A stretch of DNA of 64,000 nt from an uncultured Gammaproteobacteria bacterium (GCA_964374115.1 CAYJXK010000001.1:20790-84789); one strand, 5' to 3'. Positions 6,001 through 61,196 are shown, numbered from the stretch's first letter. Translations and numbers: made by a program. The notes: generated by a model not told the origin, from the sequence alone.

Positions 6001-9000
6001 TTGGTCTGATTGCGAGCCTTCGGATAAACAAACCTGTTGGGATGAAAAAACGAGTCTGTTTTACTGTCCGGCATACACGAGTATCTATGAATATACATAC
6101 AATCAGCCTGATTCATCATATCTTCTTCATGTGCCGATGGAATTTTTTGTTCAAGCGGATCTTGATCAATTTTCTTCGTTTACCGGTGTCGGCGGCGGGA
6201 ATTTTGATAGTGGATATGGAAATATAGACGGGAAAGTCGGGGTGACATCAGGCGATTCATCTTGTATGGCGCAAGTCATTTTGAGCCAATCGACCCCGTC
6301 AGCGCCGCCCGCATGTTTGAATGGATCAATCGCTAAAGCGGATCTTAATTGCGATGGGACTATAACCTCGGTAGATCAAGCGATCGTTGTCGCGCTTGCG
6401 ACGAACATTCCTTTGAATCAAGCAGTTGACAAAAATACAAATAATGTCGCGGATGCCTGTGAAAAACAAAATTTTTATACGCTTATTCCGACTTGTCAAG
6501 GACAGACGCAGAGTCCTTTTGCCGGCAGTTGCGGAGATGGCAATGTGAATTTGGGAGAGAGTTGCGATCCGCCAAACAAAACACAGGTGTATGGATCTTG
6601 CGGCAAAGGGACATATACTATTGGCACCTGTAATACTGAGTGCAAAGAGACGATACAATGCACTTCTCTTGCCTCATGTGGCAATGCGAAAGTAGAAATA
6701 GGAGAAGATTGCGATTTTGGCTCGAAGAAGAATGGAACCTATGGCACCAATTGCTCTGCGTCATGCACGTATTCTGCGACAGTGGCATCGTGTGGCGATG
6801 GTGCAATCCAGGCGCCGATTGAGTATTGTGAAAAGGTCAGCGATATACAGGCGGTCGTGCAAGTGACAGACGCAAAGAACATACAGAAGTATGGGCATCT
6901 GAGCTGTACGCCGTTTTTGGCGACATTTGTGAATGAATATATATCCAAAGAGTTGTGTTCTGGAGACAATGCTTGTGTCCTTGGCACTGTGTTGAGTTTT
7001 GCTCCGCTTGTCAAAACAGCTTCTCTTTGCGCGAGCGCGACAGGTTATTGTTCCGGCAACAAACAACTGTTATGTGCTGAAGATGCCGACTGCTCGAAGG
7101 GTCCGATCTCTATAAATCCTGTGATAAAAATAACCAAGAACAACGTTGCGACGATCCTTGATGGAACTGTATTAACATCCTCCGTGAGCTCTTATGGCAC
7201 ATGTGTGAAGAACAAGGCATATGGCGCTTCGTATAATTTTTACAAGAAAAATACCTGTTCCTGGGATTGCACCACTAATGGCGGATATTGTGGCGATGGG
7301 ATCGCGCAACCGCCGTCCGAGATCTGTGATGATGGGAATACGACTGATTTTGATGGGTGCTCGAGCGTCTGTCTCAAAGAAAATATCGCGTGCAAGAGTC
7401 TGAATCCCAACATAATCGTGGATGCAACGGCAAAAACAACACAAATCGTCCTTGGCAAAGGGAATTATAACACTTTGAATAATTTTCAAGGCGAACCTCT
7501 GGGCGCGTGCGTAACCAATACCACAGGCGATGATATCTGTCGCGCGTACGGATTGGCGTGTAAAACGATGATGAACGCAAATACAGCAAACGCATCAAAC
7601 TGTAATCAAAATCTATCAGACAGTCCGTCAGCTCAAAATCAATCCACAAATGCCAAATCTGCTCTGTGTTATGGAATCTACAACGGCCCCATCGCGCTTC
7701 CTCCCTCAAGCGGGACATGCGGGAATAAGACTATTGATGCGGATAAAGGAGAAACATGCGATCTCGGGGATCAAAATGGCATCGCGTGTTCCCCGGAGTA
7801 TGGCAAATCCTGCACGTATTGTGCCGACGATTGTTCGACAACGCTCACGGTGGATCCAATTGCCTATTGTGGAAATAAAATAGTAGAATCCGAAAGTGGG
7901 GAAAAATGTGATATTGATGGAACAAATGTGGTCATAAAAAAGCAACAAAATAGTCAAGTCCTGGACTACTCGTGCGCGGATGTCTTCCAAGAAGACGGCG
8001 ATCAGACCACCGATCCACAATATGCCAAAGGAAAAACGAGCTGTGACAATCAGTGCACCCTGTTCAATAAGACACAATGTATTCTCTGCGGAGAAAAACA
8101 AGGGGGACATGTGCCGGAATTGGCGCTTATGAATGTGATGGTGGGGGACAATGTAGCAGGCGACGGTGGATGGAAGAATGATAAGAAAAAAATTCTGTAT
8201 AAAGCAAACAACGCGGGGGTAACAGCTAACATTGCAGAAGACATGAGTATCGGAGACGCATTTATGAAGTATAGTCCATGGGTCGGGGATGACAATTGGA
8301 AGAAATACAAAGGCATCGAAAGCAATGCGGCATGTTTCGCGTCATATAAAGTACGTTTTTCCACTGCTGGATCAGAAACGTACGCCAGTGATTATTTCGA
8401 CTACCCGCTTACCGTGTTTGGAAACACCGTGCGCAATGATTACGCGCTTTCTCCCGCCGTACCACCCGGATACGCGCGCGTTGTGCTCCGATGGGCCTCA
8501 ACAGATGGCGACTACACCATGCTTGGAAATCTTTTCAATCCATTATTCCAAAATGAAGATGGTACTGTTCAGGGAGGGACAGCCCCACTTTCCTACTTAG
8601 AAGCGAAGAAAGATAACAAGATATGCGATGCAATCGAGACAGAAACAATCAGTGGTCATACCTTCTGGACACCGAAGAGTTGCGGATCTTACACATATGG
8701 CGTTAAGCCCAAGAGTGTTTATGTTCATCCATTTGGAAAAACGCCAAATCTACGCGCGCAAGCGTTTACAGTCAAAGTGGCTGATCTTGCCAACGGAGAC
8801 AAAATCGCGTTTTTTGTGCAGGATCTCCAAAAACCAAAAGGGATTCAGGGTGATGTGTTGAGTCCTACGATCAAGGCCGATGTGTATCTGCCAAAAGGTA
8901 ATTTTACTAATCAAACAGAAAATAGCACGAAATTGACCACGTATCTCCCCACAAAAACATTCGCCATCACAGAGTCAGCAGGAACAAGCTCGAACGCGAG

Positions 9001-9115
9001 CGCCTCATATTGGTATGCCTTTAATATTGTCAAAAAGAGTGATACCATCAGTATTGAACCAGTACAGAAGATTGTTACGGATTTTGAGGGGATACTCACA
9101 GAGTATGCAAATTAA
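23..9115 (+). CDS. Giant secreted or surface multi-repeat protein (>3030 aa). Contains Myxococcus-type Cys-rich repeats, an Asp-box (BNR) beta-propeller and a dockerin-like repeat. The 5' end is probably truncated by the window edge.
   Basis: One uninterrupted 9.1-kb ORF with no in-frame stop back to nt 2, so it likely continues upstream. Many CGDGx5-8(E/D)xCD(D/P)G...C motifs (e.g. CGDGKLDPGEDCDPPGENNCEVNC, CGDGIAQPPSEICDDGNTTDFDGCSSVC). About seven SxDxGxxW / TTNGGxTW propeller blades sit around aa 1620-1900. A dockerin-like ADLNCDGTITSVDQAIV segment is present. Confidence 0.8.
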   Translation: MNTSGKLSIFGKNFKPAAADPTIYFWKQGAEANTLSTWLSATFNTWVPTDPTVLSDVVPGFQGTQDLAPWTDGALQTLIPVASSANGGYTMKKGPIRVKGANGQESNSLNYEVGACSKASTAEKNLYNQSYHCCTEGADADQWKLNAVACDGEVREAGYVWRFTTGKIPVYPAVIENCDIKNWNVAGQTPPYPSPIPWEGHDPNTPACINGTVAVRFTKGMDPDSLKNKIKVYTCGTGDAIDCNTPIEILLTNSEGVDEWEYVSSLQLLKIMKGDVTTNILTPNTWYRVELLNGILSAKEDLGPGKEAYQAPLVKADPLHCEDPVNGNSTVYCYEFKTGGQSCVLTSAGIQPPNKTVTYLGYLLEQAYENDPVLELKGIFDKTQFIDLNMLFVYLIMGQSDKACNVLEVSGMGWNWATNSTIQATAEKLSDAGTKKNDDKAHVIALENTAPGFVQIQASAPFKLQENQNVDGADTASKSQTINAAPADLTIDLSNPGVSYFEPNCAEACVNGGILVTFDTYMDQSTYSLGFYVFACEDAVCDTLTDVTNLFELPENLQTPFTLRALLKNSNFLASGTYYKVSLNGENVTKTEVTVGKKPGSINGQLGIMSAGSKKDLTKVGKQLPPKEWVFKTQNSATPCAVGSLDVKPNPFTANIIGEKTLYEVLPKANPGVCSKDGQILNKWDYGYSWSTADGTVATVTNFGTPGISKSYCSNSCLLNGSDIPTTIASSLYLCGDGKLDPGEDCDPPGENNCEVNCVYTSGKLTTEELTGSQPYSAFDPNLVGASWCGDGFVTKGEACDSAISLAQAGGQPGKSNIGCSNNCLHTGSVVQSFACEVLGDPATLCANAVSVCGNKELEIGEGCEVVSDGGAVIYRTFTGPTDTIGEEATVTVSNANTLCNASCLLTNVCGTALAECVKDTSGCSSSCRFNGSTLLASVPSLCGDTIVGIGEYPACEVAESPTDLPGNNPLQIVTAEGNGIVNSETKKQNTFINVALDTWYTSTTKATVPPGQGAYALQCGYTEFVSPSASTGEYNDCPNNPDNVFGVGTNSCCLNRPVRTDEYPMDGAGFSGSDSPNPVCRNTAIKVTFNGEIDESSLTQPGNFVVVDGHPNGFACESIGEKNVSDLVSSLLAYQGGLEGDAGFFARVWQWIKGFFVRIFGGNVFASAYKTQVTSLSVWCSGSVAALPEITKTTDASNAVTQTTVSIAINKTLAPSTVYGVVLNGDIGGIANTSGVLIKSPDSSSRDDIWLFETGDDICKIKDVTVDPSSYLFTKPDAISSFFAEVHSQNEQLIQSTAGYSWEWSWGPHNDPLFTIPDTSNPSYPLESSDHIMISSNNLEGHATGFANATVTEDIDAVNNHKGKIFSGTTELYAQFCEKPWPALESDGSWSPWIQETYQMSMWYCSDAGVGGVVSDDLPYLVEVPPESIADPLSLKKYLFFNQQNTDVIGLQVFANPDRLSPLAWLQKKKGFAVTGFQSLDIDGYEAITDGENYYINALNKSGTVWFTNIYLLSINDGAQSSTKTVFDSLINSLEFNLNIPEVPYCGATMLDPDVTESKGCESDLECVGKQKTETLKEQKNGVCSVGSDGTWQEILVGSNETLQDIHIIGDKIWIAGDALTMMYSGDSGKNWTKQSVPGENIAGLSGLDFVDENNGWAVGSSGFIVQTKKGGAVWETLTKIPPNTPTLNAIDMANATEGWAVGYTGTILKTTNGSTWKKQTSGVTNRLNDVIFISPTIGWVVGGSGTILKTINGGAEWNKQTSGTTENIYGIFFLDENNGWAVGSNGMILQTTNGGTAWSIKNTLEEGKVNSNMVFNDVVFQNANTGWVVGGFGKNSIGLSTNNGGQTWKQFSLSPPNTTNNDLLDIALTTDGVWTVGESGLVFTTANLVSCSSNAACVSPNTCVDYQTEEKKTTDLSVCGNARTKLKRDWKRVNHIRLTQQIFASYFGQNDSYPDLKSGTFIPFYTNSRWPSWGYLGTQIKTPLPLDPLNHWSDCEPSDKQTCWDEKTSLFYCPAYTSIYEYTYNQPDSSYLLHVPMEFFVQADLDQFSSFTGVGGGNFDSGYGNIDGKVGVTSGDSSCMAQVILSQSTPSAPPACLNGSIAKADLNCDGTITSVDQAIVVALATNIPLNQAVDKNTNNVADACEKQNFYTLIPTCQGQTQSPFAGSCGDGNVNLGESCDPPNKTQVYGSCGKGTYTIGTCNTECKETIQCTSLASCGNAKVEIGEDCDFGSKKNGTYGTNCSASCTYSATVASCGDGAIQAPIEYCEKVSDIQAVVQVTDAKNIQKYGHLSCTPFLATFVNEYISKELCSGDNACVLGTVLSFAPLVKTASLCASATGYCSGNKQLLCAEDADCSKGPISINPVIKITKNNVATILDGTVLTSSVSSYGTCVKNKAYGASYNFYKKNTCSWDCTTNGGYCGDGIAQPPSEICDDGNTTDFDGCSSVCLKENIACKSLNPNIIVDATAKTTQIVLGKGNYNTLNNFQGEPLGACVTNTTGDDICRAYGLACKTMMNANTANASNCNQNLSDSPSAQNQSTNAKSALCYGIYNGPIALPPSSGTCGNKTIDADKGETCDLGDQNGIACSPEYGKSCTYCADDCSTTLTVDPIAYCGNKIVESESGEKCDIDGTNVVIKKQQNSQVLDYSCADVFQEDGDQTTDPQYAKGKTSCDNQCTLFNKTQCILCGEKQGGHVPELALMNVMVGDNVAGDGGWKNDKKKILYKANNAGVTANIAEDMSIGDAFMKYSPWVGDDNWKKYKGIESNAACFASYKVRFSTAGSETYASDYFDYPLTVFGNTVRNDYALSPAVPPGYARVVLRWASTDGDYTMLGNLFNPLFQNEDGTVQGGTAPLSYLEAKKDNKICDAIETETISGHTFWTPKSCGSYTYGVKPKSVYVHPFGKTPNLRAQAFTVKVADLANGDKIAFFVQDLQKPKGIQGDVLSPTIKADVYLPKGNFTNQTENSTKLTTYLPTKTFAITESAGTSSNASASYWYAFNIVKKSDTISIEPVQKIVTDFEGILTEYAN

Positions 9116-15220: not shown

Positions 15221-15438
15221 TTGTCCTTCTTGCCAGGAAAAGCTTCATTATGGTATTGTACCAATCAATAAATTCATATCGAGTTTTTTCCTCTCGCGCC
15301 ATCCCATCATTTTTTCTTTGTCTCCAAAACCCGCGTGTTGCAGACAGGAAAGATATTGCATTCATTCTCGACCTCGCTATACGTTCAGATATGGCCTACA
15401 GAGTTGCAGGCAAAGAAAAAGTGACTGAATGGCGCTTG

Positions 15439-15473
15439 GGAGAGCGCGTCAGACACCGAAACTCGCTATGAGT
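15439..15473 (+). repeat. Copy 1 of a 35-nt conserved intergenic element GGAGAGCGCGTCAGACACcGAAACTCGCTATGAGT.
   Basis: 34/35 identical to 39772..39806. Degenerate copies of the 3' half lie at 60968..60982 (inverted) and 61157..61174. Confidence 0.6.
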
Positions 15474-15522
15474 CCAATGATTTCATTCTATGATAGATTC
15501 TTCAGGAGGCCGTTTGAACCTC

Positions 15523-18790: not shown

Positions 18791-20083
18791 ATGCCTATCT
18801 TCATCGCCGATCTCTCTTCTCACGTCGAGAAACAAGTTACTCTCAAAGGATGGCTTTATAACAAGCGTTCGTCTGGATCGATCGCATTTTTGGAAATTCG
18901 AGATGGCACAGGGTTTGTGCAAGCAGTCGTCGACAAGTCCACCGCCCCAGAGTCTACATGGGCTGTCGCAGAAACGATTACGCAGGAATCATCTTTGTCT
19001 GTGTCTGGAAATGTGTCTGAACACCCAAAAAAACCTGGCGTGTTTGAATTGCACGTGACAGAACTTATCCTTATTCATATCGCCGAAGAATTTCCTATTG
19101 CCCTGAAAGACCATGGGCCAGAGTTTCTTCTTGATAATCGGCATCTGTGGCTGAGGAGTAAAAGGCAATGGGCAATTCTGCGGATTCGAGATGTGATTGA
19201 GAGCGCGATCCAAGAATACATGCATCAAGAGCGATTTGTCCGCGTGGATTCACCAATCTTTACACCGAATGCCTGCGAGGGAACCACCACGCTTTTTCCC
19301 GTCGAATATTTTGATGAAGGCACGGCCTATCTTGCGCAAACAGGACAGCTCTACATCGAGGCCGCGATTGCCTCGGTCGGGCGGTGCTATGATTTCGGGC
19401 CAGTATTCCGCAACGAAAAATCCAAGACCAAACGGCATCTCGCCGAGTTTTGGATGATGGATGCTGAGGCCGCATTTGTGGAGCATGAAGATAATATGAA
19501 AATTCAGGAAGGCCTTGTGAAATATATTACGAAAGATTGTCTTGAACGGTGCGTGGAAGAATTTCGTATTCTCGAGCGAGATCCGGCGCCGCTTCTTCCT
19601 GTCGTCGAAAAACCATTTCTTCGATATACATATGATGAAACAATAAAAAAATTGCATGAATTAGGATCTGACATCCGTCATGGTGAGGATTTAGGAAACG
19701 ATGACGAGGGCATGCTCACAGAGCATTCAGACGTCCCGATTTTTATTGAAAAATGGCCCAAACAAATTAAACCATTTTATATGCCAGATTCGGAGCAGAG
19801 CGGATATGTCCTCAACAATGATCTTATCGCGATCGAAGGCGCCGGTGAAATTATTGGTGGTTCACAGCGCATTGATAGACTTGATGAGCTGGTTCGACGT
19901 ATCCATGAGGACAATCTTCCACAAAAAGAATATGAATGGTATCTTGATTTACGCCGCTACGGCAGCGTACCTCACTCGGGATTCGGCATGGGGCTCGAGC
20001 GTATGGTGCGTTGGATGAGTGGCGTAGAACATATCCGAGAGTGCATTCCGTTTCCACGGACGATTACCCGATTGAGACCGTAG
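18791..20083 (+). CDS. asnS: Asparaginyl-tRNA synthetase (class IIb).
   Basis: OB-fold N-terminus ([26 protein letters not shown]). Motif 2 [24 protein letters not shown] matches AsnRS (E. coli [24 protein letters not shown]). A bacterial-type AspRS is present separately at 26249. Confidence 0.7.
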   Translation: [430 protein letters not shown]

Positions 20084-20133
20084 AGCCCATCTCAAAAACA
20101 TAAAAATAAGTCCGAAGAAAGTATTACAAGACT

Positions 20134-28086: not shown

Positions 28087-31000
28087 ATGCCCGATGAAAT
28101 TCATAATTTATCCGAAGCCGAGATGGCGGAGAGGAGGATGAAAATTGATGCCACTGGCTCTACAGCAGAACCAGAACAGGCAGAATCATTGCCGTCGGAT
28201 TTGGAAGGAAAATCTTGGCTGATTTTGGAATTTATCAATAAAGATCCGGATTATTTTTTTGAACGATGCAAAAAATTTCATAAAAAAATAGCGATGGAAC
28301 TGCTGGAGTCAGTTGCAGATGGTTCATCCAGTGATACAATTGAAGAATTTTTATTATTACACCTTGATCGTTTTACTGGCCTAGACAAAGAAGTCGCGCT
28401 GATGTTTTTCAACTTTCATAATTTTGACGAACTTAGAAAACAACTCATCGAATATGTTTTTGCCCACCCGGAACATTTTTTTGGTTTTGCTTTGGATAAA
28501 GAATTGGCAATATACCTGTTGAATCAGCACATGTATCACTTTGAGTTAGCCGGTGATTCACTTTTAATTGCACATATTGATCGTTTTACCGGATTAGACA
28601 AAGAGATAGCTTTGCTATTGGTGCGTCAGAAAGAAAAAAAAAGCGTAGAGTACGTTTTGACACACCCGGAGTACTTTTTTGGATTCTCACTTGATAAAGA
28701 AGTAGTCTTAGGATTGTTGGGGAATAAGCTTTCTTTTTCAAAGGGAAAATTATTACTCAAGTTTTTTGATCATTTCAACAATCTGGACAGAGACGTTGCT
28801 TTAGCGATTTTAAAAAATACGACGGGCACAGAACAGATGAATTGCGCCGAGTTTATTCTTTCTCATCCCGAACATTTTGCCGGGCTAACATTTGATCAAG
28901 AATTCCTCTTGCTGATTCATGGTTTAGGTAAGGAAATGGACGTGTTGTGTGATTATATTGATAAATTTTCTGGCCTTGACAGAGAGGCTGCCATAAACTG
29001 TCTGTGGCGGGGCGGCAAAAAATTAGTCACCTATGTTTTTTCTCATCCGGACCATTTCACTGGTTTTGCCCTTGATAAAAAACTGGCGCTCGAAATCACC
29101 TGCCGGTTTGAATATCTTGAACCCTTTGTTGATAATTTTTTGGGATTGGATAAAGACGTTGCGATGAATTGGCTTGGGTGGCGTTCTCAAAGAGATGATT
29201 ATAATAAGACATACGCTGAATATGTCTTATCCCATCCTGAACGTTTTGCTGGGTTCGTTTTAGATGCCAATGTAGGGGATTTAGCGATTTCGTACGACGA
29301 TATAATCTGTAGAACAGAAAAAGTTACACAGCGTATTTTCAAATTTCTTGGTCATTTGGCTGGAGTAAAGCTGAGTAAAGATTTAGCCAAAAAATTTATT
29401 AATAATCATGACACTCTTCAGTATGTTTTAGATCATCCTGAACAATTTGGGGGGTTGGACAAAGAGTGGGCATTTGAACTAATCAAAAAAAGTCGAGTGA
29501 AGATTAGTAACGGTAAGGAAGAGGGTATAGACGGTGCAGAGTATGTTCTATCACACCCTGAATTGTTTAACGGGTTTAGTTTTAATAGTGAGTTGGCGTT
29601 GGCGCTACTCGCCGACGATATAGGTGCAATTGCCCTAGCTAAACATATCGACAAATTCATTGGTTTGAGTAAGGATGTTGCGCTTGGATTGTCAAAATAT
29701 AGATCATATAGAGTCGGATTTAAATGGCAGGATTTAATAATTGCCCATGTTGATAGTTTTGTAGGTTTAGACCAAGAGATCGCGGTTGCTTTAATTAGTG
29801 ACTTTATAGATAATAAAAAGGAAGGTGAAAAATATTTTGCGTATCTCTTTTTGAATCCGCAACACTTTGGCGGTTTAGGCAAGTCCATGGCAATGAAATT
29901 GTTAGCCGATCGAAGGAGTGATTTACTTCTAAAGTATATTGATAATTTCACCGAATTGGACAAAGAAGTGGCACTAGGGTTGCTTCGTACCCGTAAAGAA
30001 GGGACTCTATATGTCCTTTCCCATCCAGAACATTTTTCCGGTTTTGTTTTTGATAAAGAGGTCGCTTTAATTTTAGCTGAGGTAGGCGAGGGTGTGGCCC
30101 ACATAACCGAAGATCAGCTAGCGCAATTTGTTGGCCTAGACAGAGAAGTAGCTGAAGGCTGGCTTTCGGTGCGCACCTCGTTGCCACTGGCTGAGTATTC
30201 CATCTCTCACTCCGAGCGATTTGTTGGCTTTAAGTTGGATAAAAAAACAGCGGACATTGCCTTCTCGGCAGGGCATTGGCAATTAGTCAGGAAATACATC
30301 GATCAATTTAGTGATCTGGATCAACAGACAGCGGAGAAATTTTTTAAGCATGGTGATGACGAGGTAGCCCGGTATGTCCTTGCTCATCCGGATAATTTTG
30401 TCGGACTGAATTTGAATAGGGAGTTAGCTTTGGTTCTTCTTGATACCAAACATGCGGGCGCACTTTCCGATTTTATCCCCCAGTTTACCGGTTTAGACCA
30501 TGGGATAGCCATAAAGTTATTTGAAACAAAAAAGGCTATCGAAAATACCATCAAGAATGCTGATTGTTTTTCCGATTTTGTATTAGGGGAAAGCACTGCT
30601 CAGGTGTTACTGGATTTAGGCCAGCCAGAATTGTTGATAAAATATATGAGCCAGTTCACCGATTTGAATGCTAAATATCTTCACCTTGATCAGCCATTTC
30701 GTGAATATTTTTTGAGTATTTTATCCAGTGGGCAGATTCCAGTGCTTACGCAAGAGGATTATCATTGTCAAGAAGAGTATCATTACATACCAAAGGAGAT
30801 TGACGATACCGAAGATGAAGGGGGCGGAGCTATGAGGGAAAATTTTTTGGAAGAAATTTTTCAAGCCAACCGGGTAGCGGCATTTAATCATACTAAAGAT
30901 TTAAAACTCCCTTCCAAACAATTGTTTTCGGTTGCCCATACATATAATTCAAAAGATGATTTCGAGATATACAAAATGCTCATGACCAACGGATATCTTG

Positions 31001-33093
31001 TCAAGGATATTCTTGAATACAGTTGGGTTTTAAAAAATAAAGAAATAGCCACATTCCCTTCAGAAGATAAATTTCCGTGTGATAAACCTCGCGGTGCTCA
31101 AGAATCTTGGCTTGCGCGCCACGCCTTCCATATCCCCGAAGGTTGGCAGACAAAACGTTTGGGCAGTATTATTTACAATCGTCTTCATACGGGAATCGAC
31201 ACTAACCTTCACGACGCCACGTATTGGCTCAAAGATTTCGACGTTCCTGGTTCTGCCCATGGCACAACATACAAAGATGAGAACGCGGAATTACTTCTTT
31301 TATTGTCGACAATGGATACGCCCGAGAAGATGCGCGCCCGTTTGCCGTCAAATCCCAATCGTTACCGTGAGTTATTTGCGTCGTCAGCCGGCGAGTTAGT
31401 CTATCAAGCCCTATTGCCCTTGGCAAAAGAAGGCCCGGTGGCGATAGAACAGTTGAAATCGAGCATGCGTGACATTCTAAGCCAGTTGGATTCTTCAGAA
31501 GATCAGCAACGACAACTCAAAATCCCTCTACCTAATCTTCTGGAAGAAGTAGAGAACCTGTTAACTAATCTGGCCGCCCGTGCAGAAGAAGAACATAATG
31601 ATATACCAGGGCTCCTCCAACACTTAAAAATTGTCAGCCAAAATCGTACCAGATATATTGATGAAGCTCAGACGTGGGTGCAAACCCATCAATCCACGCC
31701 TCGTTCCCTTCTTCAGGTTGCTTGGACTAATCGGCCTCTCGCTTTATCTGACGGTTGTGCCGATAATCCGCGAGCAATTAAACAGTGGGCTGATATAAAT
31801 ACCCTAAAATTTTCGGTTGCCGAAATGGAGAAAAATGGACGTTTACCAAAAAATTTTTCTATTTCTGATGTGAAAGCTTATACCCCCTGGCTCAACGAAT
31901 TGGTTCGCTGTTACTCCGGTGAAACCGCCGTTCAAACTGTAGCACTTCTCAAAGAGGAGTTTAACCCTGAATATTATATTCCACCCGCAAAAATTGATCT
32001 CGACCACGGTTGGGTCGGGGAAGTTCTCCCCAAGAATGATCCGCGTGGTTTTACGATTGGGTATGATACTGGTTGTTGTATGACGCTGGGTGGAGCGTCC
32101 GAGAGCTGTATTCATGCCGGCTACACTGATCCCTCGTACGGTTTTTTCGTCCTTTACCGCGATGGTCGGCTGTGCGCACAATCTTTTCTGTATACCAACA
32201 CGGGAAAGTCACCCGGAACGATTATCTGCGACAATATTGAAGCTAACGAAGGACGTGATCAGGAAGAGGTTTTAAGACGCTATCAGGAATTTTTTCGAAA
32301 ATATATTCGCCAAGAGCTGCAACGTGACCCGAGTAGTCCTTTTGTTGAGATCAACGTAGGAATCGGTTACACTGAAGTTGGGCTTGATTCGCTTGAGTCT
32401 GCTGATCAGATCCCTATGCCGCTAAAGGAAGGCGAACATATTTATTCGGATGCTAGCGTACAGAAAAAATTATTTAAGCTGGACAATGAAGAAATTGAAA
32501 AAATAAAAGCCGAACATGCCGCCGCTCCGAAAAAACGTCCTCGTCTGCAGAAATTTGAAAACGCCCAACCAATTGAACACCTAAAGCCCAAGACATTTGT
32601 TGATTATCCGGTACCTGAACAGGCCCCCATACTAGCCGAAATCGAAGCGGCGACGTATCCCGAAAACCAGCGTCGCGGCATTACGTTCTTTCAAGAGGAA
32701 CTGGCGCAGTCAGTGGGGAAAAATCTTTTGGTTATTGAACAGCGCGAAGGAAATGAAATTCCGGTCGGGTATGCGCTCGTGAAGGAAATAGACTCGCCCG
32801 ATTCTGGAAAGGTTATACAGATCTCTGAAATTGCCATTGTCGCCGATGCCCAGAAACAAGGATTTGGCAAAGCGTTATTAGGAAGCATTTTAGCAGGAAA
32901 TAGAAGAGGGCCGAGTAATTTTATTGATTTTCACATTAGGGACCAAACGTTTTTCAATGCGTTAAGGCGCAATGAAAAACTAATCACTGAACAGGGATTT
33001 CATGTTATGAGTGACACTATCCAAGGCGACGAACATCTATTACGGCTAAAGAGAAATATCCGACCTGCTACGGGAGAAGTGGATGATGAGTAA
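28087..33093 (+). CDS. Giant (1668 aa) tandem alpha-helical-repeat protein. About 17 alternating ~40-aa repeats are followed by an unassigned Cys-containing central region and a C-terminal GNAT-like N-acetyltransferase domain.
   Basis: Repeat unit pairs h(I/V)DxFxGLDKE(V/I)ALxLL with YVLSHPEhFxGFxLDKE(V/L)ALxLL (aa ~85-830). The C-terminus VGYALVKEI...ISEIAIVADAQKQGFGKALLGSIL matches GNAT motif A. The gene is visibly AT-richer than its neighbours and uses TTA/CTA Leu codons that are rare elsewhere in the window. Confidence 0.75.
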   Translation: MPDEIHNLSEAEMAERRMKIDATGSTAEPEQAESLPSDLEGKSWLILEFINKDPDYFFERCKKFHKKIAMELLESVADGSSSDTIEEFLLLHLDRFTGLDKEVALMFFNFHNFDELRKQLIEYVFAHPEHFFGFALDKELAIYLLNQHMYHFELAGDSLLIAHIDRFTGLDKEIALLLVRQKEKKSVEYVLTHPEYFFGFSLDKEVVLGLLGNKLSFSKGKLLLKFFDHFNNLDRDVALAILKNTTGTEQMNCAEFILSHPEHFAGLTFDQEFLLLIHGLGKEMDVLCDYIDKFSGLDREAAINCLWRGGKKLVTYVFSHPDHFTGFALDKKLALEITCRFEYLEPFVDNFLGLDKDVAMNWLGWRSQRDDYNKTYAEYVLSHPERFAGFVLDANVGDLAISYDDIICRTEKVTQRIFKFLGHLAGVKLSKDLAKKFINNHDTLQYVLDHPEQFGGLDKEWAFELIKKSRVKISNGKEEGIDGAEYVLSHPELFNGFSFNSELALALLADDIGAIALAKHIDKFIGLSKDVALGLSKYRSYRVGFKWQDLIIAHVDSFVGLDQEIAVALISDFIDNKKEGEKYFAYLFLNPQHFGGLGKSMAMKLLADRRSDLLLKYIDNFTELDKEVALGLLRTRKEGTLYVLSHPEHFSGFVFDKEVALILAEVGEGVAHITEDQLAQFVGLDREVAEGWLSVRTSLPLAEYSISHSERFVGFKLDKKTADIAFSAGHWQLVRKYIDQFSDLDQQTAEKFFKHGDDEVARYVLAHPDNFVGLNLNRELALVLLDTKHAGALSDFIPQFTGLDHGIAIKLFETKKAIENTIKNADCFSDFVLGESTAQVLLDLGQPELLIKYMSQFTDLNAKYLHLDQPFREYFLSILSSGQIPVLTQEDYHCQEEYHYIPKEIDDTEDEGGGAMRENFLEEIFQANRVAAFNHTKDLKLPSKQLFSVAHTYNSKDDFEIYKMLMTNGYLVKDILEYSWVLKNKEIATFPSEDKFPCDKPRGAQESWLARHAFHIPEGWQTKRLGSIIYNRLHTGIDTNLHDATYWLKDFDVPGSAHGTTYKDENAELLLLLSTMDTPEKMRARLPSNPNRYRELFASSAGELVYQALLPLAKEGPVAIEQLKSSMRDILSQLDSSEDQQRQLKIPLPNLLEEVENLLTNLAARAEEEHNDIPGLLQHLKIVSQNRTRYIDEAQTWVQTHQSTPRSLLQVAWTNRPLALSDGCADNPRAIKQWADINTLKFSVAEMEKNGRLPKNFSISDVKAYTPWLNELVRCYSGETAVQTVALLKEEFNPEYYIPPAKIDLDHGWVGEVLPKNDPRGFTIGYDTGCCMTLGGASESCIHAGYTDPSYGFFVLYRDGRLCAQSFLYTNTGKSPGTIICDNIEANEGRDQEEVLRRYQEFFRKYIRQELQRDPSSPFVEINVGIGYTEVGLDSLESADQIPMPLKEGEHIYSDASVQKKLFKLDNEEIEKIKAEHAAAPKKRPRLQKFENAQPIEHLKPKTFVDYPVPEQAPILAEIEAATYPENQRRGITFFQEELAQSVGKNLLVIEQREGNEIPVGYALVKEIDSPDSGKVIQISEIAIVADAQKQGFGKALLGSILAGNRRGPSNFIDFHIRDQTFFNALRRNEKLITEQGFHVMSDTIQGDEHLLRLKRNIRPATGEVDDE

Positions 33094-39742: not shown

Positions 39743-39771
39743 TCATTGAACTCATATCATTTTTCCTCTCA

Positions 39772-39806
39772 GGAGAGCGCGTCAGACACAGAAACTCGCT
39801 ATGAGT
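39772..39806 (+). repeat. Copy 2 of the 35-nt element GGAGAGCGCGTCAGACACaGAAACTCGCTATGAGT, located between the convergent parB and rel genes.
   Basis: Same as the previous feature. Confidence 0.6.
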
Positions 39807-39810
39807 TTAT

Positions 39811-41367: not shown

Positions 41368-41393
41368 AAAAATCCGACCTCAGTCGGATTTTT
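41368..41393. terminator. Bidirectional intrinsic terminator (A5-TCCGAC-ctca-GTCGGA-T5) overlapping the topA stop codon.
   Basis: 11-bp stem with a 4-nt loop. The U-run is present on both strands. Confidence 0.6.
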
Positions 41394-43674
41394 GAATCGC
41401 CTCATTCCTCAGAAATAGTCTATTAGCTATTGGCTCTGAATTCACCAAATAATCACACGTCTTGCTCGAACATCGAAACGTATTTTTTGCGCCAAACACA
41501 ATGGGGGAAGAGCATGTCGGACACATCTGTCCCGTGGGTTTGCTCCAGAGAGCATTTTTGCATTCGGGATAGCGATTGCACCCATAAAACGGTTTGCCAC
41601 GTTTGCTTTTTCTTTCCACAAATTCTCCCTCTGTACAAAGATTGCACCGAACACCAGTTTTCTTTTCTATTTTTTTGATTGTTTTACACTCAGGATACCC
41701 GCTACAGCCCAAAAACATCCCAAATCGGCCTCGTTTTACCATGAGTGGCTTCCCACAGTTTTCGCATACCTCTCCAGATAGTTCTTGTTGCATGGTCGCT
41801 TCCTCTCCTATCGGTTTGGTGGTTTTACATTCCGGATAATTGGAACAGGCCATGAATTTTCCAAAGCGGCCAATCTTGATCACCATGGGGCTGTCACATT
41901 TGACACAGCGCTCATCTGTTTTTTCTTCTGTGAGCGCTTGTTTGGAGAGCTCAGTGGTTTTCGTCACAATCGTCTCATGAAACGGCTCATAAAACGCGAC
42001 GATGATAGGCTGCCATTCTTTGGCGCCAGAGGCAATTTCATCGAGCGCGCCTTCCATATCAGCTGTGAATGCGTAATCAACAATGTTGGGAAAATGTTCC
42101 ACCAATAGATCAATGACAATCAGCGCGATATCTGTCGGCTCGAATCGTTTTTTTTCATCTCGAACGACATAACGGCGCTCTTCAAGGGTGGCAATGGTGG
42201 GGGCATAGGTAGATGGTCGCCCAATGCCGTATGCTTCGAGAGACTTCACCAATGTGGCATCCGAATATCGAGACGGTGGAGTGGTGAAATGTTGTTCAGG
42301 TTTGAGAGAAAGACAGGTAAGTGGGGCATGTTCTTGTACGTCAGGGAGAAGCGATTCCCGAAAAAGTTCTGGATAGAGAATAAGCCAACCATCAAATTGA
42401 ATGGTTTGTCCTGTGGCGCGGAACATATATGGTTTGTCGGTCGTTACAGATTTCCCTTCCACATCAATGGTGGCAAGATTCACCGCCGCCGCTTGCATCT
42501 GAGTGGCGACTGCTCGTTTCCAGATCAGCTCATAGAGCCGATATTGTTCTCGGCTGAGATGTGCCTGTATCGAATCGGGTGATCGTGCGGGATCAGCTGG
42601 TCGAATCGCTTCATGCGCTTCCTGTGCTCCTTTGGATTTTGTTTTGTATCGGCGCGGTTGAGGAAGAGTATACCGTTCACCGAACGATTTTCTGATTGTC
42701 TGTTCCGCCTCGCTAAGAAAAGTATCTGAGAGATTATTCGAATCGGTTCGCATGTACGTGATAAGGCCGTGTGATCCTTCTGCTCCAAGTTCAACTCCTT
42801 CATAGAGCTGTTGCGCGATACGCATGGTTTGTTTGGAAGAAAATCCGAGTTGGTGATTGGCCACCTGTTGCAGGGTGGATGTGGTAAATGGTGGTGGAGG
42901 ATTTCTTCGACTTTCTTTTTTTGTGATAGACAGGACACGATATATCGCGTCTTTGAGATTTCCCAAAATATCATCCATCTGTTCTTGTGTCTTGATATCG
43001 AGGTTGTCGAGTTTTTTTTCATCAATCGCGTGGAGTCGGGCAACAAAGTGCATGTCTTTTTTTTTCATCTCCTCGTCGGCAAACTGTCCATCAAGGGTCC
43101 AATATTCTTCTGGTTTGAAGTTTTTTATTTCTCGCTCCCGTTCAACAATAAGGCGGAGCGCGACCGATTGCACTCGTCCAGCAGAAAGCCCTTTCGCCAC
43201 TTTTTTCCACAGCAGTGGGGAAAGCTCATAGCCTACGAGGCGATCAAGGATACGCCGCGCTTGCTGGGCATCAACCAATTTTTGATCAATAGGTCGCGGA
43301 TGCGCGAGCGCTTCTTCAATCGCCCGTTTCGTGATTTCATGAAACACCATCCGTCGCGCCTTGTCTTTTGGGACATCGAGGAGTTCAGCGAGGTGCCACG
43401 AGATGGCTTCGCCTTCACGATCTTCATCTGTGGCAAAAATAATATCCTTGCTTTTTTTTGCTAATGCTTTTAGTTTTTTTACGGTTTCGCTTTTTTCTTT
43501 TGGAACCACATATTTGGGCGCGAATGTTTTTCCTTCGATATCCAGCCCCATGTTGGATTTGGGAAGATCGCGAATGTGCCCAAACGAAGAAGCCACGGAA
43601 AAACCTTTGCCAAGGAATCGAGTGATTGTTTTTGCTTTGGTGGGAGATTCGACGATGACAAGTGTTGGTTTCAT
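41380..43674 (-). CDS. topA: DNA topoisomerase I.
   Basis: TOPRIM N-terminus MKPTLVIVESPTKAKTI. The active-site Tyr region and three C-terminal C4 zinc ribbons are present. Confidence 0.95.
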   Translation of the reverse strand: MKPTLVIVESPTKAKTITRFLGKGFSVASSFGHIRDLPKSNMGLDIEGKTFAPKYVVPKEKSETVKKLKALAKKSKDIIFATDEDREGEAISWHLAELLDVPKDKARRMVFHEITKRAIEEALAHPRPIDQKLVDAQQARRILDRLVGYELSPLLWKKVAKGLSAGRVQSVALRLIVEREREIKNFKPEEYWTLDGQFADEEMKKKDMHFVARLHAIDEKKLDNLDIKTQEQMDDILGNLKDAIYRVLSITKKESRRNPPPPFTTSTLQQVANHQLGFSSKQTMRIAQQLYEGVELGAEGSHGLITYMRTDSNNLSDTFLSEAEQTIRKSFGERYTLPQPRRYKTKSKGAQEAHEAIRPADPARSPDSIQAHLSREQYRLYELIWKRAVATQMQAAAVNLATIDVEGKSVTTDKPYMFRATGQTIQFDGWLILYPELFRESLLPDVQEHAPLTCLSLKPEQHFTTPPSRYSDATLVKSLEAYGIGRPSTYAPTIATLEERRYVVRDEKKRFEPTDIALIVIDLLVEHFPNIVDYAFTADMEGALDEIASGAKEWQPIIVAFYEPFHETIVTKTTELSKQALTEEKTDERCVKCDSPMVIKIGRFGKFMACSNYPECKTTKPIGEEATMQQELSGEVCENCGKPLMVKRGRFGMFLGCSGYPECKTIKKIEKKTGVRCNLCTEGEFVERKSKRGKPFYGCNRYPECKNALWSKPTGQMCPTCSSPIVFGAKNTFRCSSKTCDYLVNSEPIANRLFLRNEAIQKSD

Positions 43675-43700: not shown

Positions 43701-45053
43701 TCATTTTGTCAATGTTCCCCGAAGTTCGCCGCTCAGAAACATTGATCCTGTCACGAGAATAATTCCATGCGTTTTCTTTTGTTTTTTTGTGCTCCATGTG
43801 TATGCGTCTGATGGATCAATGAAGCGCCGATAAGAGGATCGTGGGAGTTGTCGTTCAAAAAGTTTTTTTACTGTGGAGAGATCAGCGATACGACGGAAAG
43901 GATTCATCGTATTGCGAGAGATGGCAACACTGCGTGGCCGAAGCTTTGTAAGCAGCCGGATCATAGAGCGAAAGTCTTTATCTTCAGAAAATGAGACAAT
44001 AAGGTGTGTGGATTTGGGAAGTTTTTTTTTCTTTTGTAGGTCAAGAATCGTCCTCACGGTCGCGCGCATTTTATCCGGATTATGCGCTCCGTCAAGAATC
44101 ACCATAGGTTTTTTCGATACGATTTCACAGCACAGTGGTTGCCATGCTCCGCGAAGGCCATCGTGTATCGAAGCGCTCGGAATGCCAAGACTTTTGGCCA
44201 CGTCAATCACAAGACACGCGTTTTGCACCTGGTGGATGCCAGTGGCACGGATGGTATAGCGATGTCCTTTGTGCGTGAACGTCGTGCGATCACGTGTTTG
44301 CGAGAGCATCTGGAATTCGGGACGAATGACCATCAGCCTGGCGTGTTTCTTTGCGCATATATTTCTGATTACAGAAAGCACGCGGGGATTTTGTTCCATA
44401 GTCCACACAGGGCATTGAACGGTGATTATTCCTGCTTTTTCTTTTGCAATGGCTGTTTTGGTAGAGCCAAGAATTTCTGTATGATCAAGACCAATCGTGG
44501 TGATAATCGCGCATTCTTTTTTTGGGATGACATTGGTCGCATCAAATTGTCCACCCAATCCCACTTCCATCACAGCCCAATCCACACCATTTTTGGCAAA
44601 ATAGGTCAGCGCCATAGCGGTCGTGACTTCGAAATACGATGGCACCCCAAACGGACTCTGCTCGAGACAGAGGGTGAGCGCTTTCTTCATTTCGTGAACC
44701 AGAGAAGAAAAATCTTTTTCAGAAATTATTTCATTGTTGATAGACCAATTTTCTCGAATCGTGGTTGGATATGGAGAGATGAAGAGTCCTGTTTTTTTAT
44801 GCGCGTTCACGAGGATAAAAGAGAGATACCGACACACCGATCCCTTGCCGCTTGTGCCCGCGACATGAATAAAGTGTGAGATTTTTTTTTCTGGATTTCC
44901 GAGAAGATCAAGAAGAAATTGTGTCCGTTTGAGATAGAGTGCGTTCCATGTTCGATCATGAAGATATTCCGGTCTCTGGATATTGAAAAGAGAGAGGAGA
45001 AATTGTTCGGCGTTGTTATGTGTGAATGCCACAAGAGTGTGATGAGAGCCCAT
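43701..45053 (-). CDS. folC: Folylpolyglutamate synthase / dihydrofolate synthase (Mur ligase family).
   Basis: P-loop HVAGTSGKGS and DGAHNP motif (VILDGAHNPDKM). Confidence 0.8.
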   Translation of the reverse strand: MGSHHTLVAFTHNNAEQFLLSLFNIQRPEYLHDRTWNALYLKRTQFLLDLLGNPEKKISHFIHVAGTSGKGSVCRYLSFILVNAHKKTGLFISPYPTTIRENWSINNEIISEKDFSSLVHEMKKALTLCLEQSPFGVPSYFEVTTAMALTYFAKNGVDWAVMEVGLGGQFDATNVIPKKECAIITTIGLDHTEILGSTKTAIAKEKAGIITVQCPVWTMEQNPRVLSVIRNICAKKHARLMVIRPEFQMLSQTRDRTTFTHKGHRYTIRATGIHQVQNACLVIDVAKSLGIPSASIHDGLRGAWQPLCCEIVSKKPMVILDGAHNPDKMRATVRTILDLQKKKKLPKSTHLIVSFSEDKDFRSMIRLLTKLRPRSVAISRNTMNPFRRIADLSTVKKLFERQLPRSSYRRFIDPSDAYTWSTKKQKKTHGIILVTGSMFLSGELRGTLTK

Positions 45054-45206
45054 CTCAAAAATAATTTTGAGCCAGTTTCATGGACGTTTTGAGCGAAAAA
45101 AGTGAAAATCGAGGAGGCATACTGGTAGCATGACGACGAGATATGAATTTTTTGCGGCCAAAACGGACGGAACATGAGCCATGAATTATTTTTGAGATGG
45201 GCTCTC
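45044..45206. repeat. Perfect 22-bp inverted repeat pair (GAGAGCCCATCTCAAAAATAAT at 45044-45065; ATTATTTTTGAGATGGGCTCTC at 45185-45206) bracketing the 119-bp folC-dprA intergenic spacer.
   Basis: Seen directly. The left arm overlaps the folC start codon and the right arm overlaps the last codons of dprA. Confidence 0.7.
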
Positions 45207-46331
45207 GTGACTGAGGACGTACATCATACCACCGATATTGCGTACCTTTCCTTTCATTTCCATAAGCGTCATGGTGCTCATCACGCGCGAGCTCCCGAGG
45301 CCTGATTGGTGAATGATTTCATCCATGTGCAAAGGTTCTCTCGAGAGGAGAGGAAGGAGTGCCGCTTCTTCTTCTGATTCAGGATGAATAGAAGGCGCGA
45401 GTGTTTGTTTTATCTCAGAGAGGTTCAACACTTGGAATATATCTTCCGCCGACGTCACAAGGGTTGCCCCCATTTTGATGAGCGTATTTGTGCCACCCGA
45501 TGTCTTTGACGTGATATTGTGTGGGACGGCAAAGACTTCCCGATTATTATCAAGCGCGGATCGGGCGGTAATGAGCGCTCCGGATTTTTCTCCGGCTTCC
45601 ACAACCAGCGTGCCTAAAGAAAGCCCTGCGATAATCCGATTGCGTTCTGGAAAGCTATAGGCCGTGGGAAGGAATCCTGGCGGATATTCAGCAATCACCG
45701 CGCCGTCCGCCGCAATAATTTTTTCTGCGAGAGGTCGATGCACGGCAGGGAAAATCGTCCATCGGTCAATGCCAGAACCAAGAACCGCTATGGTGTTTCC
45801 ACCAGAGGCAAGTGTTGCCGCATGGGCGCATCCATCGATCCCGAGCGCAAGGCCGCTCACAATCGTAAGGCCAGCATGCACGAGCGCAGTCACAAGCTCT
45901 TCCGTGACTTGCTTGCCATAAGGAGAAAATGATCGAGTGCCAACGACAGCAAGCATCGATCCTTTGGCGTCCAAGTTTCCTCTCACAAACAAACAGATCG
46001 GCGGATCATAGGTTTGTTTGAGGAGCGCCGGATACCGAGAGTCTGACAGCGGAATCACGTCTATTCCATGCGCGATAAGCTGTTCTTCGATATTTTTTTC
46101 TATGCATTCATGATCTCTCCAGAAAACGAATTGTTCAATAATATTTGATTCCCAGAGCAATGTTTTTTTGAGTGTATCACTTTTGGCCGACCATGCATCA
46201 TCAAGGGAAAGGCGAGAGGCAATGAGGTGTTGATATCGTCGAAATGTCATTTTTGGAAAATAGGAGAGAAGCGCTTCTTTGGGGAGCATAGCAATGAGTT
46301 TACTCGTCCATCTGCTGTACCGCTTTCCCAA
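45186..46331 (-). CDS. dprA: DNA processing protein DprA (Smf).
   Basis: Rossmann-like core LAVVGTRSFSPYGKQVTEELVTALVHAGLTIVSGLALGIDGCAH. The start may be an internal Met, because the track ORF overlaps pth by 32 nt. Confidence 0.85.
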   Translation of the reverse strand: MGKRYSRWTSKLIAMLPKEALLSYFPKMTFRRYQHLIASRLSLDDAWSAKSDTLKKTLLWESNIIEQFVFWRDHECIEKNIEEQLIAHGIDVIPLSDSRYPALLKQTYDPPICLFVRGNLDAKGSMLAVVGTRSFSPYGKQVTEELVTALVHAGLTIVSGLALGIDGCAHAATLASGGNTIAVLGSGIDRWTIFPAVHRPLAEKIIAADGAVIAEYPPGFLPTAYSFPERNRIIAGLSLGTLVVEAGEKSGALITARSALDNNREVFAVPHNITSKTSGGTNTLIKMGATLVTSAEDIFQVLNLSEIKQTLAPSIHPESEEEAALLPLLSREPLHMDEIIHQSGLGSSRVMSTMTLMEMKGKVRNIGGMMYVLSHESPSQK

Positions 46332-46815
46332 TCATTTCTTCCACAATTTTTCTTTCCTCCCGAGAAAACTTCCTTAACACAAAATCACTTGTGTTTTCCA
46401 TTTTTTTTGGGTCAGAGGGAGCGATGCCGAGTCGGACGCGGGTGAAATTTTTGGATCCGAGTATGTCTATGAGAGAGCGAACGCCGTTATGGCCCGCATG
46501 GCCTCGATTTTTTTGCACACGCACTTCGCCGAGGGCGAGATCTTTGTCGTCGTGTACCACCGTGAGATCATCGAGCGAACATTTGTAAAAACGCATGATA
46601 CATTGCACTGCGCGTCCGGATTCATTCATAAACGTGCCTGGCTTCGCCAGCACCATTTTTTTTGTTACGCGGCAAATCCATGCGTGGAAAGATTTTTTCC
46701 ATTCCCAGTTTTGTCCCGCGTTCAAAGCATATGCGTCCACCACCATAAATCCCACGTTATGCCTGGTTCGTTCGTATTCTTTTCCTGGATTGCCGAGACC
46801 GATGATCAATTTCAT
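46300..46815 (-). CDS. pth: Peptidyl-tRNA hydrolase.
   Basis: MKLIIGLGNPGKEYERTRHNVGFMVVD. Confidence 0.9.
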   Translation of the reverse strand: MKLIIGLGNPGKEYERTRHNVGFMVVDAYALNAGQNWEWKKSFHAWICRVTKKMVLAKPGTFMNESGRAVQCIMRFYKCSLDDLTVVHDDKDLALGEVRVQKNRGHAGHNGVRSLIDILGSKNFTRVRLGIAPSDPKKMENTSDFVLRKFSREERKIVEEMIGKAVQQMDE

Positions 46816-60959: not shown

Positions 60960-60990
60960 GTAGTATGAACTCATAGCGAATTATCCCTCC

Positions 60991-61133
60991 GCATGGTCAC
61001 GATTCCTTTTTTCTTCCCTCCAAAATCTGCACGCGCAAAACTCAAACCGCATCATAGGCACCCACAGCGTTCTCTACACGCCTGTTTTGCCACTGAGCAT
61101 TGGAGGCGAAAAAAAAAGGAATCGTGACCATGC
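60991..61133. repeat. Perfect 22-bp inverted repeat pair (GCATGGTCACGATTCCTTTTTT at 60991-61012; AAAAAAGGAATCGTGACCATGC at 61112-61133) with a 99-bp spacer in the clpC/pmm divergent intergenic region.
   Basis: Seen directly. Nested inside degenerate inverted copies of the ACTCGCTATGAG motif. Confidence 0.7.
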
Positions 61134-61196
61134 TTCATACAGCGGATACTGCATGGAAACTCGCTATTGAGTTTTATAGCAAACAACTGCTGACAG

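Follow-up and report, generated by a model that had tools for sequence, protein, structure and literature searches.

The pth, dprA, folC and topA genes lie in this order on the minus strand of the stretch of DNA analysed here (GCA_964374115.1 CAYJXK010000001.1:20790-84789; 64,000 nt, hereafter the window), which was deposited under an uncultured Gammaproteobacteria bacterium. The junction between dprA, the gene for DNA-processing protein A, and folC carries a long inverted repeat. As had been described in an earlier note on this DNA, the 22-mer GAGAGCCCATCTCAAAAATAAT occupies 45044-45065, and positions 45185-45206 carry its reverse complement without a mismatch. The perfect part proved to be one base longer than reported there, giving arms of 23 nt (45044-45066 and 45184-45206) around a spacer of 117 nt. 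The repeat can be extended to 28 nt with two mismatches (45039-45066 and 45184-45211, 93% complementarity). With up to three mismatches allowed, the 22-mer was found twice, against 0.01 occurrences expected by chance in shuffled windows. Each arm overlaps an end of a gene in the manner that had been noted: the dprA-side arm contains the codons GAG AGC CCA TCT CAA AAA TAA, read as ESPSQK and a stop, and the folC-side arm holds ATG GGC TCT, the start of the longest folC open reading frame (ORF).

The spacer between the arms is also quasi-palindromic, and RNA folding of the junction, a check suggested in the earlier note, predicts a single long hairpin, both for a stretch of 191 nt and for the 173 nt spanned by the extended repeat (z about -9). 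For the 191 nt, the minus (mRNA) strand has a predicted energy of -62.4 kcal/mol at z = -9.0, and the plus strand one of -73.4 kcal/mol at z = -8.3. The inverted repeat very probably represents the ends of a 159-nt non-autonomous transposon, a MITE, or miniature inverted-repeat transposable element, of the IS5/IS427 group of insertion sequences (ISs), lying in the dprA stop codon. As such the element is a known type of mobile unit and not a new kind of regulatory system. The features of the locus, in which each end of the element is called a terminal inverted repeat (TIR), are as follows.

45046-45204: MITE, from TIR to TIR, 159 nt, no transposase; same ends, orientation and size as the 159-161-nt elements of its family; ends also given as GAGCCCATCTCAAAA
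45046-45066, plus strand: folC-proximal TIR, GAGCCCATCTCAAAAATAATT; on the minus strand it includes the annotated folC ATG, 45053-45051
45184-45204, minus strand: dprA-proximal TIR, GAGCCCATCTCAAAAATAATT read on the minus strand; supplies SPSQK and the TAA stop at 45188-45186
45044-45045, plus strand: flank GA, where family members have TA; the minus strand reads TC, on the folC side
45205-45206, plus strand: flank TC, GA on the minus strand; probable former TA of the dprA stop codon
45186-45206, minus strand: probable element-derived 3' extension of dprA, ESPSQK and TAA, from comparison with DprA homologues
45030-45032, minus strand: GTG, probable ancestral folC start, 11 nt past the reconstructed dprA TAA
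45186-46331, minus strand: dprA (PF02481, PF17782)
43701-45053, minus strand: folC, longest ORF; seven codons, MGSHHTL, precede the probable ancestral GTG, and ATG GGC TC- is TIR sequence
46300-46815 and 41380-43674, minus strand: pth and topA, respectively, on the same strand as dprA and folC
20081-20098, plus strand: solo TIR, TA followed by GAGCCCATCTCAAAAA, on the stop codon, TAG, of asnS (asparaginyl-tRNA synthetase)

A search for further copies of the arm had been recommended, and it revealed one that had previously been missed. BLAST of the element against the window turned up 17 nt of the arm, AGAGCCCATCTCAAAAA, in a third exact copy at 20082-20098, overlapping the TAG stop of asnS. 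The slightly longer 19-mer TAGAGCCCATCTCAAAAAT was observed three times in the window at up to three mismatches, compared with 0.03 expected in shuffles. No partner arm was found for the copy at asnS, which is probably what is left of another insertion by a member of this family. Outside the window, the exact 22-mer had no match in JGI metagenome contigs, and the 17-mer was present in at least 120 of them. Among the matches listed, the 17-mer is preceded by T (TA/GAGCCC...) in 72 of 117 distinct contexts, and in 34 of 125 it has an inverted partner with no more than four mismatches. The modal start-to-start spacing of these paired 17-mers is 144-146 nt, and that of the window copy is 144. One contig of 64% G+C (L116) was observed to carry two 17-mers in direct and not inverted orientation, at 1775-1791 and 1920-1936, 145 nt apart and with near-identical flanks; here a unit with one TIR has been duplicated in tandem.

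The identity of the TIRs was established from longer elements with the same ends. In L098, L170, L172 and L201 the inverted ends lie 805-880 nt apart and enclose two overlapping ORFs, and the full-length elements measure about 820-880 bp. The enclosed ORFs match DUF4096 and DDE_Tnp_1 and also, with E values of 6e-32 and 1e-40, NF033580, which is the NCBIfam equivalog named 'IS5 family transposase'. The ends of these full-length ISs, GAGCCCATCTCAAAAAT..., are common to the window element, and the 17-nt core is identical. In all four copies the transposase C-terminus reads ...ILLRQF and its TGA stop falls within the right TIR (TTT TGA GATGGGCTC TA; about 880-913 in L098). It is probably this double role of the right TIR, as transposase end and as TIR, that explains its near-invariance across contigs of 39-72% G+C. 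Members of the IS427 group of the IS5 family are about 830-865 bp long, with a 2-bp direct repeat and two frameshifted ORFs (PMC3281130), and the size, the 2-bp duplication and the two ORFs of the full-length elements therefore assign them to this group. A variant of the same ends, TA followed by GAAGCCATCCCAAAA, is present on a Deinococcus ficus plasmid. Readings of the 17-mer as part of a REP/REPIN-RAYT system or as a DNA uptake sequence were dropped, since full-length IS5 elements share its ends.

Short elements without coding capacity form a family of their own around these TIRs. In about 30 matches the TIRs bound coding-free elements of 120-300 nt, most commonly of 159-161 nt. Counting the window copy, 27 short TIR-bounded elements were gathered from the metagenome contigs, and 10 of the 27 are 159-161 nt long. 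TA was observed on both flanks in 19 of the 26 elements other than the window copy. A GTGA direct repeat at the flanks of the window copy was considered as a target-site duplication and rejected, since it is not flush on both sides and the duplication of the family is TA. The earlier note had offered, as its second explanation of the structure, a small inserted element with the arms as its terminal inverted repeats, and this explanation is strongly supported, the arms being TIRs of the IS5/IS427 group and the 159-nt unit belonging to a widespread MITE family.

With the copies in L122/L204 and in L132 the window element forms gap-free alignments at 85% and 83% identity, respectively. These copies lie downstream of a glycosyltransferase gene in another Patescibacteria-like organism; the named homologues of the glycosyltransferase come from WWE3, Patescibacteria and Magasanikbacteria. 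The upstream ORF continues into the element at this locus as well. L122/L204 and L132/L205, which come from two samples, share 236 nt of left flank and MITE at 96% identity and diverge totally from the right TIR onwards. This break points to rearrangement or recombination at the element, or to strain variation, and is what a repeated and recombinogenic sequence would be expected to show. The best conserved interior part in the comparison with L122/L132 is the central loop at 45106-45140, GAGGAGGCATA.TGGTA..ATGACGACGA. On the plus strand the loop resembles a Shine-Dalgarno sequence, GGAGG, with an ATG, but the micro-ORF behind it has 15 codons here and 5 in L122 and is probably non-coding.

Nine elements of the 159-161-nt class besides that of the window (L103, L107, L109, L122, L132, L192, L197, L198 and L202) were each found to form one hairpin across the midpoint. 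The interiors of this class are not alignable and the host G+C ranges from 0.39 to 0.72, which suggests a constraint on structure and not on sequence. Accordingly, a consensus structure over ten family members retained the TIR stem only. The hairpin of this constant-length class could be something that IS427-type transposases require to mobilise the element, or that the element requires to survive in transcripts. The Logan contig L001 ends k-1 bases into the window element, its last 31-mer beginning at the first base outside the repeat. This suggests a repeat boundary in the k=31 graph, where the next k-mer has two predecessors, and hence further copies of the element.

The ends of the two neighbouring genes were compared with those of their homologues. 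Of 119 DprA homologues, 117 end two residues after ...GGMMYVL or its equivalent, exactly where the arm begins, and several of them end in ...SH followed by the stop. The window protein reads ...GGMMYVLSH and then continues with ESPSQK. SPSQK and the TAA come from the TIR, and the first of the extra codons, GAG, spans the mutated flank. For FolC, the P-loop is at residue 56 in 75 of 120 homologues, which is the mode; in the window it is at residue 65 when counted from the ATG and at residue 58 when counted from the GTG at 45032-45030. This GTG may be the true start of folC. From these comparisons, both ORFs appear to run from their canonical ends into the repeat.

We then reconstructed the empty site. 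With the element and one flanking dinucleotide removed, and the other dinucleotide written as TA, the junction reads ...ATG ATG TAC GTC CTC AGT CAC TAA TCACACTCTT GTG GCA..., a site that includes AGTCACTAATCACACTCTTGTG. DprA here terminates as ...MMYVLSH-TAA, which is its canonical end, and the folC GTG follows 11 nt on, as tightly as in the relatives L012, L049 and L058. Since the canonical end of DprA is restored on removal of the element, the element would have entered the TA of the dprA stop codon.

The proposed history is as follows. A transposase acting in trans would have brought the element into the dprA stop at its TA (CAC TA/A), duplicating the TA. Together with the first G of the element, the TA would have rebuilt the stop as TAG, and folC would have retained its GTG 11 nt past the element. 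Such a rebuilt stop is still present at asnS, which reads CCG TAG AGCCC.... A later T to G change would have turned the TAG at dprA into GAG, extending DprA by six codons into the TIR, up to the TAA within the element. At the folC-side end the paired A would have changed to C, most likely by hairpin-templated correction, so that the palindrome stayed perfect. Owing to an in-frame ATG within the folC-side TIR, the longest folC ORF would now start in the element. Hairpin-templated correction of quasi-palindromes is a known mutational process. The window element differs from that in L122 by four double changes that preserve pairing, the terminal pair among them, and by our own estimate about 0.5 such changes would be expected by chance (15% divergence, 63 pairs). 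Templated correction accounts for these paired changes without selection; selection for the helix is also a possible cause.

On the evidence of its DprA protein, the window places in a Magasanikbacteria-like lineage within the Patescibacteria (the CPR, or candidate phyla radiation), with a reduced genome. In a search of 5.8 billion proteins the closest DprA outside the same strain was 60% identical and the closest FolC 52%. The gene order pth-dprA-folC-topA is conserved in relatives, and the gap between dprA and folC is highly variable: in L003-L016 it ranges from 0 to 1.3 kb with differing cargo, which includes a 23S_rRNA_IVP four-helix-bundle protein, a Vut_1 (YhhQ-like) transporter and an unassigned membrane protein and amounts to 0.5-1.3 kb where it is present. 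In L012, L049 and L058 dprA abuts folC, and in L012 the folC GTG overlaps the dprA TGA. The repeat and hairpin of the window were found at none of 13 Magasanikbacteria-like junctions; what some of these show is a hairpin of unrelated sequence, cargo genes, or a stop codon that overlaps the start codon. The comparison of the junction across relatives, which the earlier note had called for, thus indicates an insertion, with dprA abutting folC without the repeat in some relatives and unrelated cargo between the genes in others. In this comparison of filled and empty sites the relatives that lack the element and have abutting genes are distant, the nearest relatives being about 55-60% identical in DprA.

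Long hairpins unrelated to that of the window were also noticed just after dprA or before folC in L010 (2801-2877), L009 (5148-5279), L003 (5912-5979) and L014 (5048-5079 and 5901-5986), with arms of 16-33 nt over these relatives. Palindromic elements at the dprA-folC boundary seem to be common in the group.

Certain observations weigh against the interpretation of the repeat as an inserted MITE and against the history proposed for it. The searched collections hold no genome above about 60% DprA identity, and hence no empty site from a near relative. A tblastn search of the window with the transposase gave nothing below E = 0.86, and the 64 kb contain one complete copy of the element and one solo TIR. 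The window copy lacks the canonical TA duplication, its flanks being GA and TC. Each of these differs from TA by a single base and the changes complement each other (GC stands in place of TA at pair 1/163), so the insertion history depends on a reconstruction with two substitutions. In addition, the read-through, masking, ribosome-dependent opening and RNase III cutting described below are model-based predictions, and constrained folding unmasks the folC start only in part, the mean probability of being unpaired over -18..+12 of the AUG rising from 0.17 to 0.28.

As regards the mRNA, a scan for sigma-70 promoters and intrinsic terminators found none around the element or around the copy at asnS. 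As there is neither a terminator tail nor a promoter at the element, and topA lies downstream, transcription presumably reads through, and a pth-dprA-folC-topA transcript would contain the element. A stem of at least 23 bp would then bury the initiation region of folC. Ribosomes finishing dprA would melt the 5' arm, and this is probably what still lets folC be translated. A perfect duplex of such length would also be a candidate substrate for RNase III. In the free mRNA, the AUG at 45053 was predicted to be unpaired with a probability of 0.00 and the GTG region to be about half open; when the 5' arm was blocked in constrained folding, the probability for the first base of the AUG was 0.92-0.97. 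Most predicted genes of the window have no recognisable Shine-Dalgarno sequence and are preceded instead by 30 nt rich in A/T. Because Shine-Dalgarno sequences are scarce, an open start region probably matters.

The earlier note had first proposed a device for translational coupling or attenuation, with the ribosome-binding region of folC sequestered in the stem. The geometry behind this proposal holds, in that folding predicts full pairing of the folC AUG and the dprA frame encloses the 5' arm; as the reason for the existence of the structure the proposal is unsupported, since no orthologous junction has this structure and recognition by transposase explains the arms. We consider it unlikely that the hairpin is, or has become, such a device. 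In such a device the folC start would be hidden by the 3' arm and freed only by ribosomes that reach the end of dprA, which is now six codons deeper in the 5' arm, and FolC synthesis would be tied to that of DprA. The AUG is predicted to be closed in the free mRNA and its first base to be freed when the 5' arm is occupied, but the region as a whole opens only in part. The dprA ORF takes in the whole 5' arm, its stop codon being 2 nt from the inner end of the arm, and an open start region should matter where Shine-Dalgarno sequences are few; the ancestral layout, however, with TAA and a GTG 11 nt later, was already tightly coupled, and the element is likelier to have damaged coupling than to have created it. 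The loss of the stop codon was matched by a complementary change at the other end, leaving the stem perfect, and the four double compensatory changes relative to L122 suggest that the hairpin is being maintained, but templated mutation can maintain a palindrome without selection. The arm itself is fully explained as a transposase-binding TIR common to many unrelated loci. A more specific version, in which the element has been co-opted, appears doubtful: here the loss of TAG would let ribosomes cross the whole 5' TIR, unzip the stem and license folC, and perhaps topA, and the compensatory changes would reflect selection. Coupling is nevertheless a plausible account of the present expression of folC on the modelled folding, as a by-product of the transposon ends and not as a conserved device.

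That the locus holds an independent gene for a structured small RNA, 6S-like or antisense, between dprA and folC is highly improbable. The hairpin is long and very stable, the plus strand folds better than the mRNA strand, and the central loop is the best conserved interior part in the comparison with L122. Against this, no Rfam family was matched even at E values up to 10, promoter-like and terminator-like sites are lacking on both strands, and the G-U pairs, four on each strand, show no asymmetry that would pick out a transcribed strand. In Rfam 15 at the gathering threshold the whole window gave three tRNA matches only, and the best hit in 44900-45350 scored 18 bits, against a gathering score of 70, to an unrelated eukaryotic lncRNA model. 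Beyond the TIRs the family interiors cannot be aligned, and the element ends are IS ends flanked by TA in the family. Hardly any weight can be given to the view that the gene junction was duplicated locally in inverted form, or that the assembly is at fault. Metagenome assemblers can make palindromic chimeras and both Logan contigs stop inside the element; however, two independent Logan assemblies (ERR3478686 and ERR4904392) reproduce the dprA-side arm with 8-18 nt of the interior. Moreover, the gene order pth-dprA-folC-topA across the element is the one conserved in relatives, homologous elements of the same length occur in unrelated contigs, and a third copy of the TIR lies 25 kb away. An IS5/IS427-group MITE inserted in the dprA stop codon thus remains the interpretation that we adopt.

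A second and unrelated repeat family was noticed elsewhere in the window. Its copies are E1 (15262-15476, downstream of nrdR), E3 (60963-61175, in the clpC/pmm spacer) and E4 (39745-39808). E1 and E3 show homology across some 215 nt (60% identity, E = 2e-4). Both have inner hairpins of 140 nt, the arms of which differ in sequence yet stay complementary, enclosed by the outer inverted motifs AACTCATAGCGA... on one side and ...TCGCTAT(T)GAGTT on the other. In E4 the inner hairpin is missing and the outer parts of E1 are present (35 nt, 97% identity). Either E1 and E3 contain the inner hairpin as a nested insertion, or E4 arose by deletion. Kinship of the dprA-folC element with these other long inverted repeats, E1 (15296-15435) and E3 (60991-61133), was tested and none was found, in agreement with the earlier statement that its sequence bears no relation to that of the clpC/pmm inverted repeat. 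The window also contains two very large plus-strand ORFs, 23-9115 and 28087-33093, of 3030 and 1668 codons.

The element resembles the IS5/IS427 ISs IS1248 and ISPpa2 of Paracoccus (PMC3281130) in its TIRs starting with GAG, in the TA duplication of its family and in the two ORFs of the full-length copies. Unlike these ISs, the window element is 159 nt long, has no transposase and would be movable only with a cognate transposase in trans. With the Correia (Neisseria), ERIC, RUP, Chunjie and Nezha MITEs it shares a small size, TIRs, a long RNA stem-loop and a location at gene ends in operons (PMC10969869, PMC3184786). The TA-type duplication of its family, which for the window element is a reconstructed one, is a trait of Correia elements too. 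RNase III cleaves the TIR stems of Correia elements, and mRNA stability and decay are altered by ERIC elements (PMC10969869). Like classical MITEs, for which the extension of ORFs at the 3' or 5' end is well documented (PMC3184786), the window element lengthens the neighbouring ORFs at both kinds of end. It differs from them in sequence and parent IS, which are unrelated, and in its host, a reduced-genome Patescibacterium; its TIR, moreover, is found in contigs of 39-72% G+C and is not confined to one genus. Rickettsia palindromic elements likewise add codons to host proteins (PMC3184786), as here six residues to DprA and up to seven to FolC, but they are translated as internal peptide insertions, whereas the window element lies between genes and has an in-frame stop.

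Coupling by long-range pairing in mRNA is conserved and has been shown experimentally for the coat and replicase genes of phage MS2 and for rpmI-rplT in E. coli. The arrangement at dprA-folC is similar in that the upstream ORF crosses one strand of the helix and the downstream start codon lies on the other. It is different in that the helix here is a predicted one, consists of transposon TIRs and is present in this genome only.

For the organism and for the family, the points of interest are the clean insertion in a stop codon, the effects on annotation, the reduced CPR host and the class of fold-back elements of conserved length. In annotation, six residues at the end of DprA and seven codons at the start of FolC, the first three of them TIR, would have to be regarded as by-products of the insertion. 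Since TA and the first G of the element rebuild a stop codon, a MITE in an operon with the essential topA would not have been disruptive. The TIR, TA followed by GAGCCCATCTCAAAAAT, offers a simple metagenome probe for the family and helps to explain breaks in short-read assemblies. Cosmopolitan MITEs of the IS5/IS427 group, it appears, reach even the reduced genomes of Patescibacteria.

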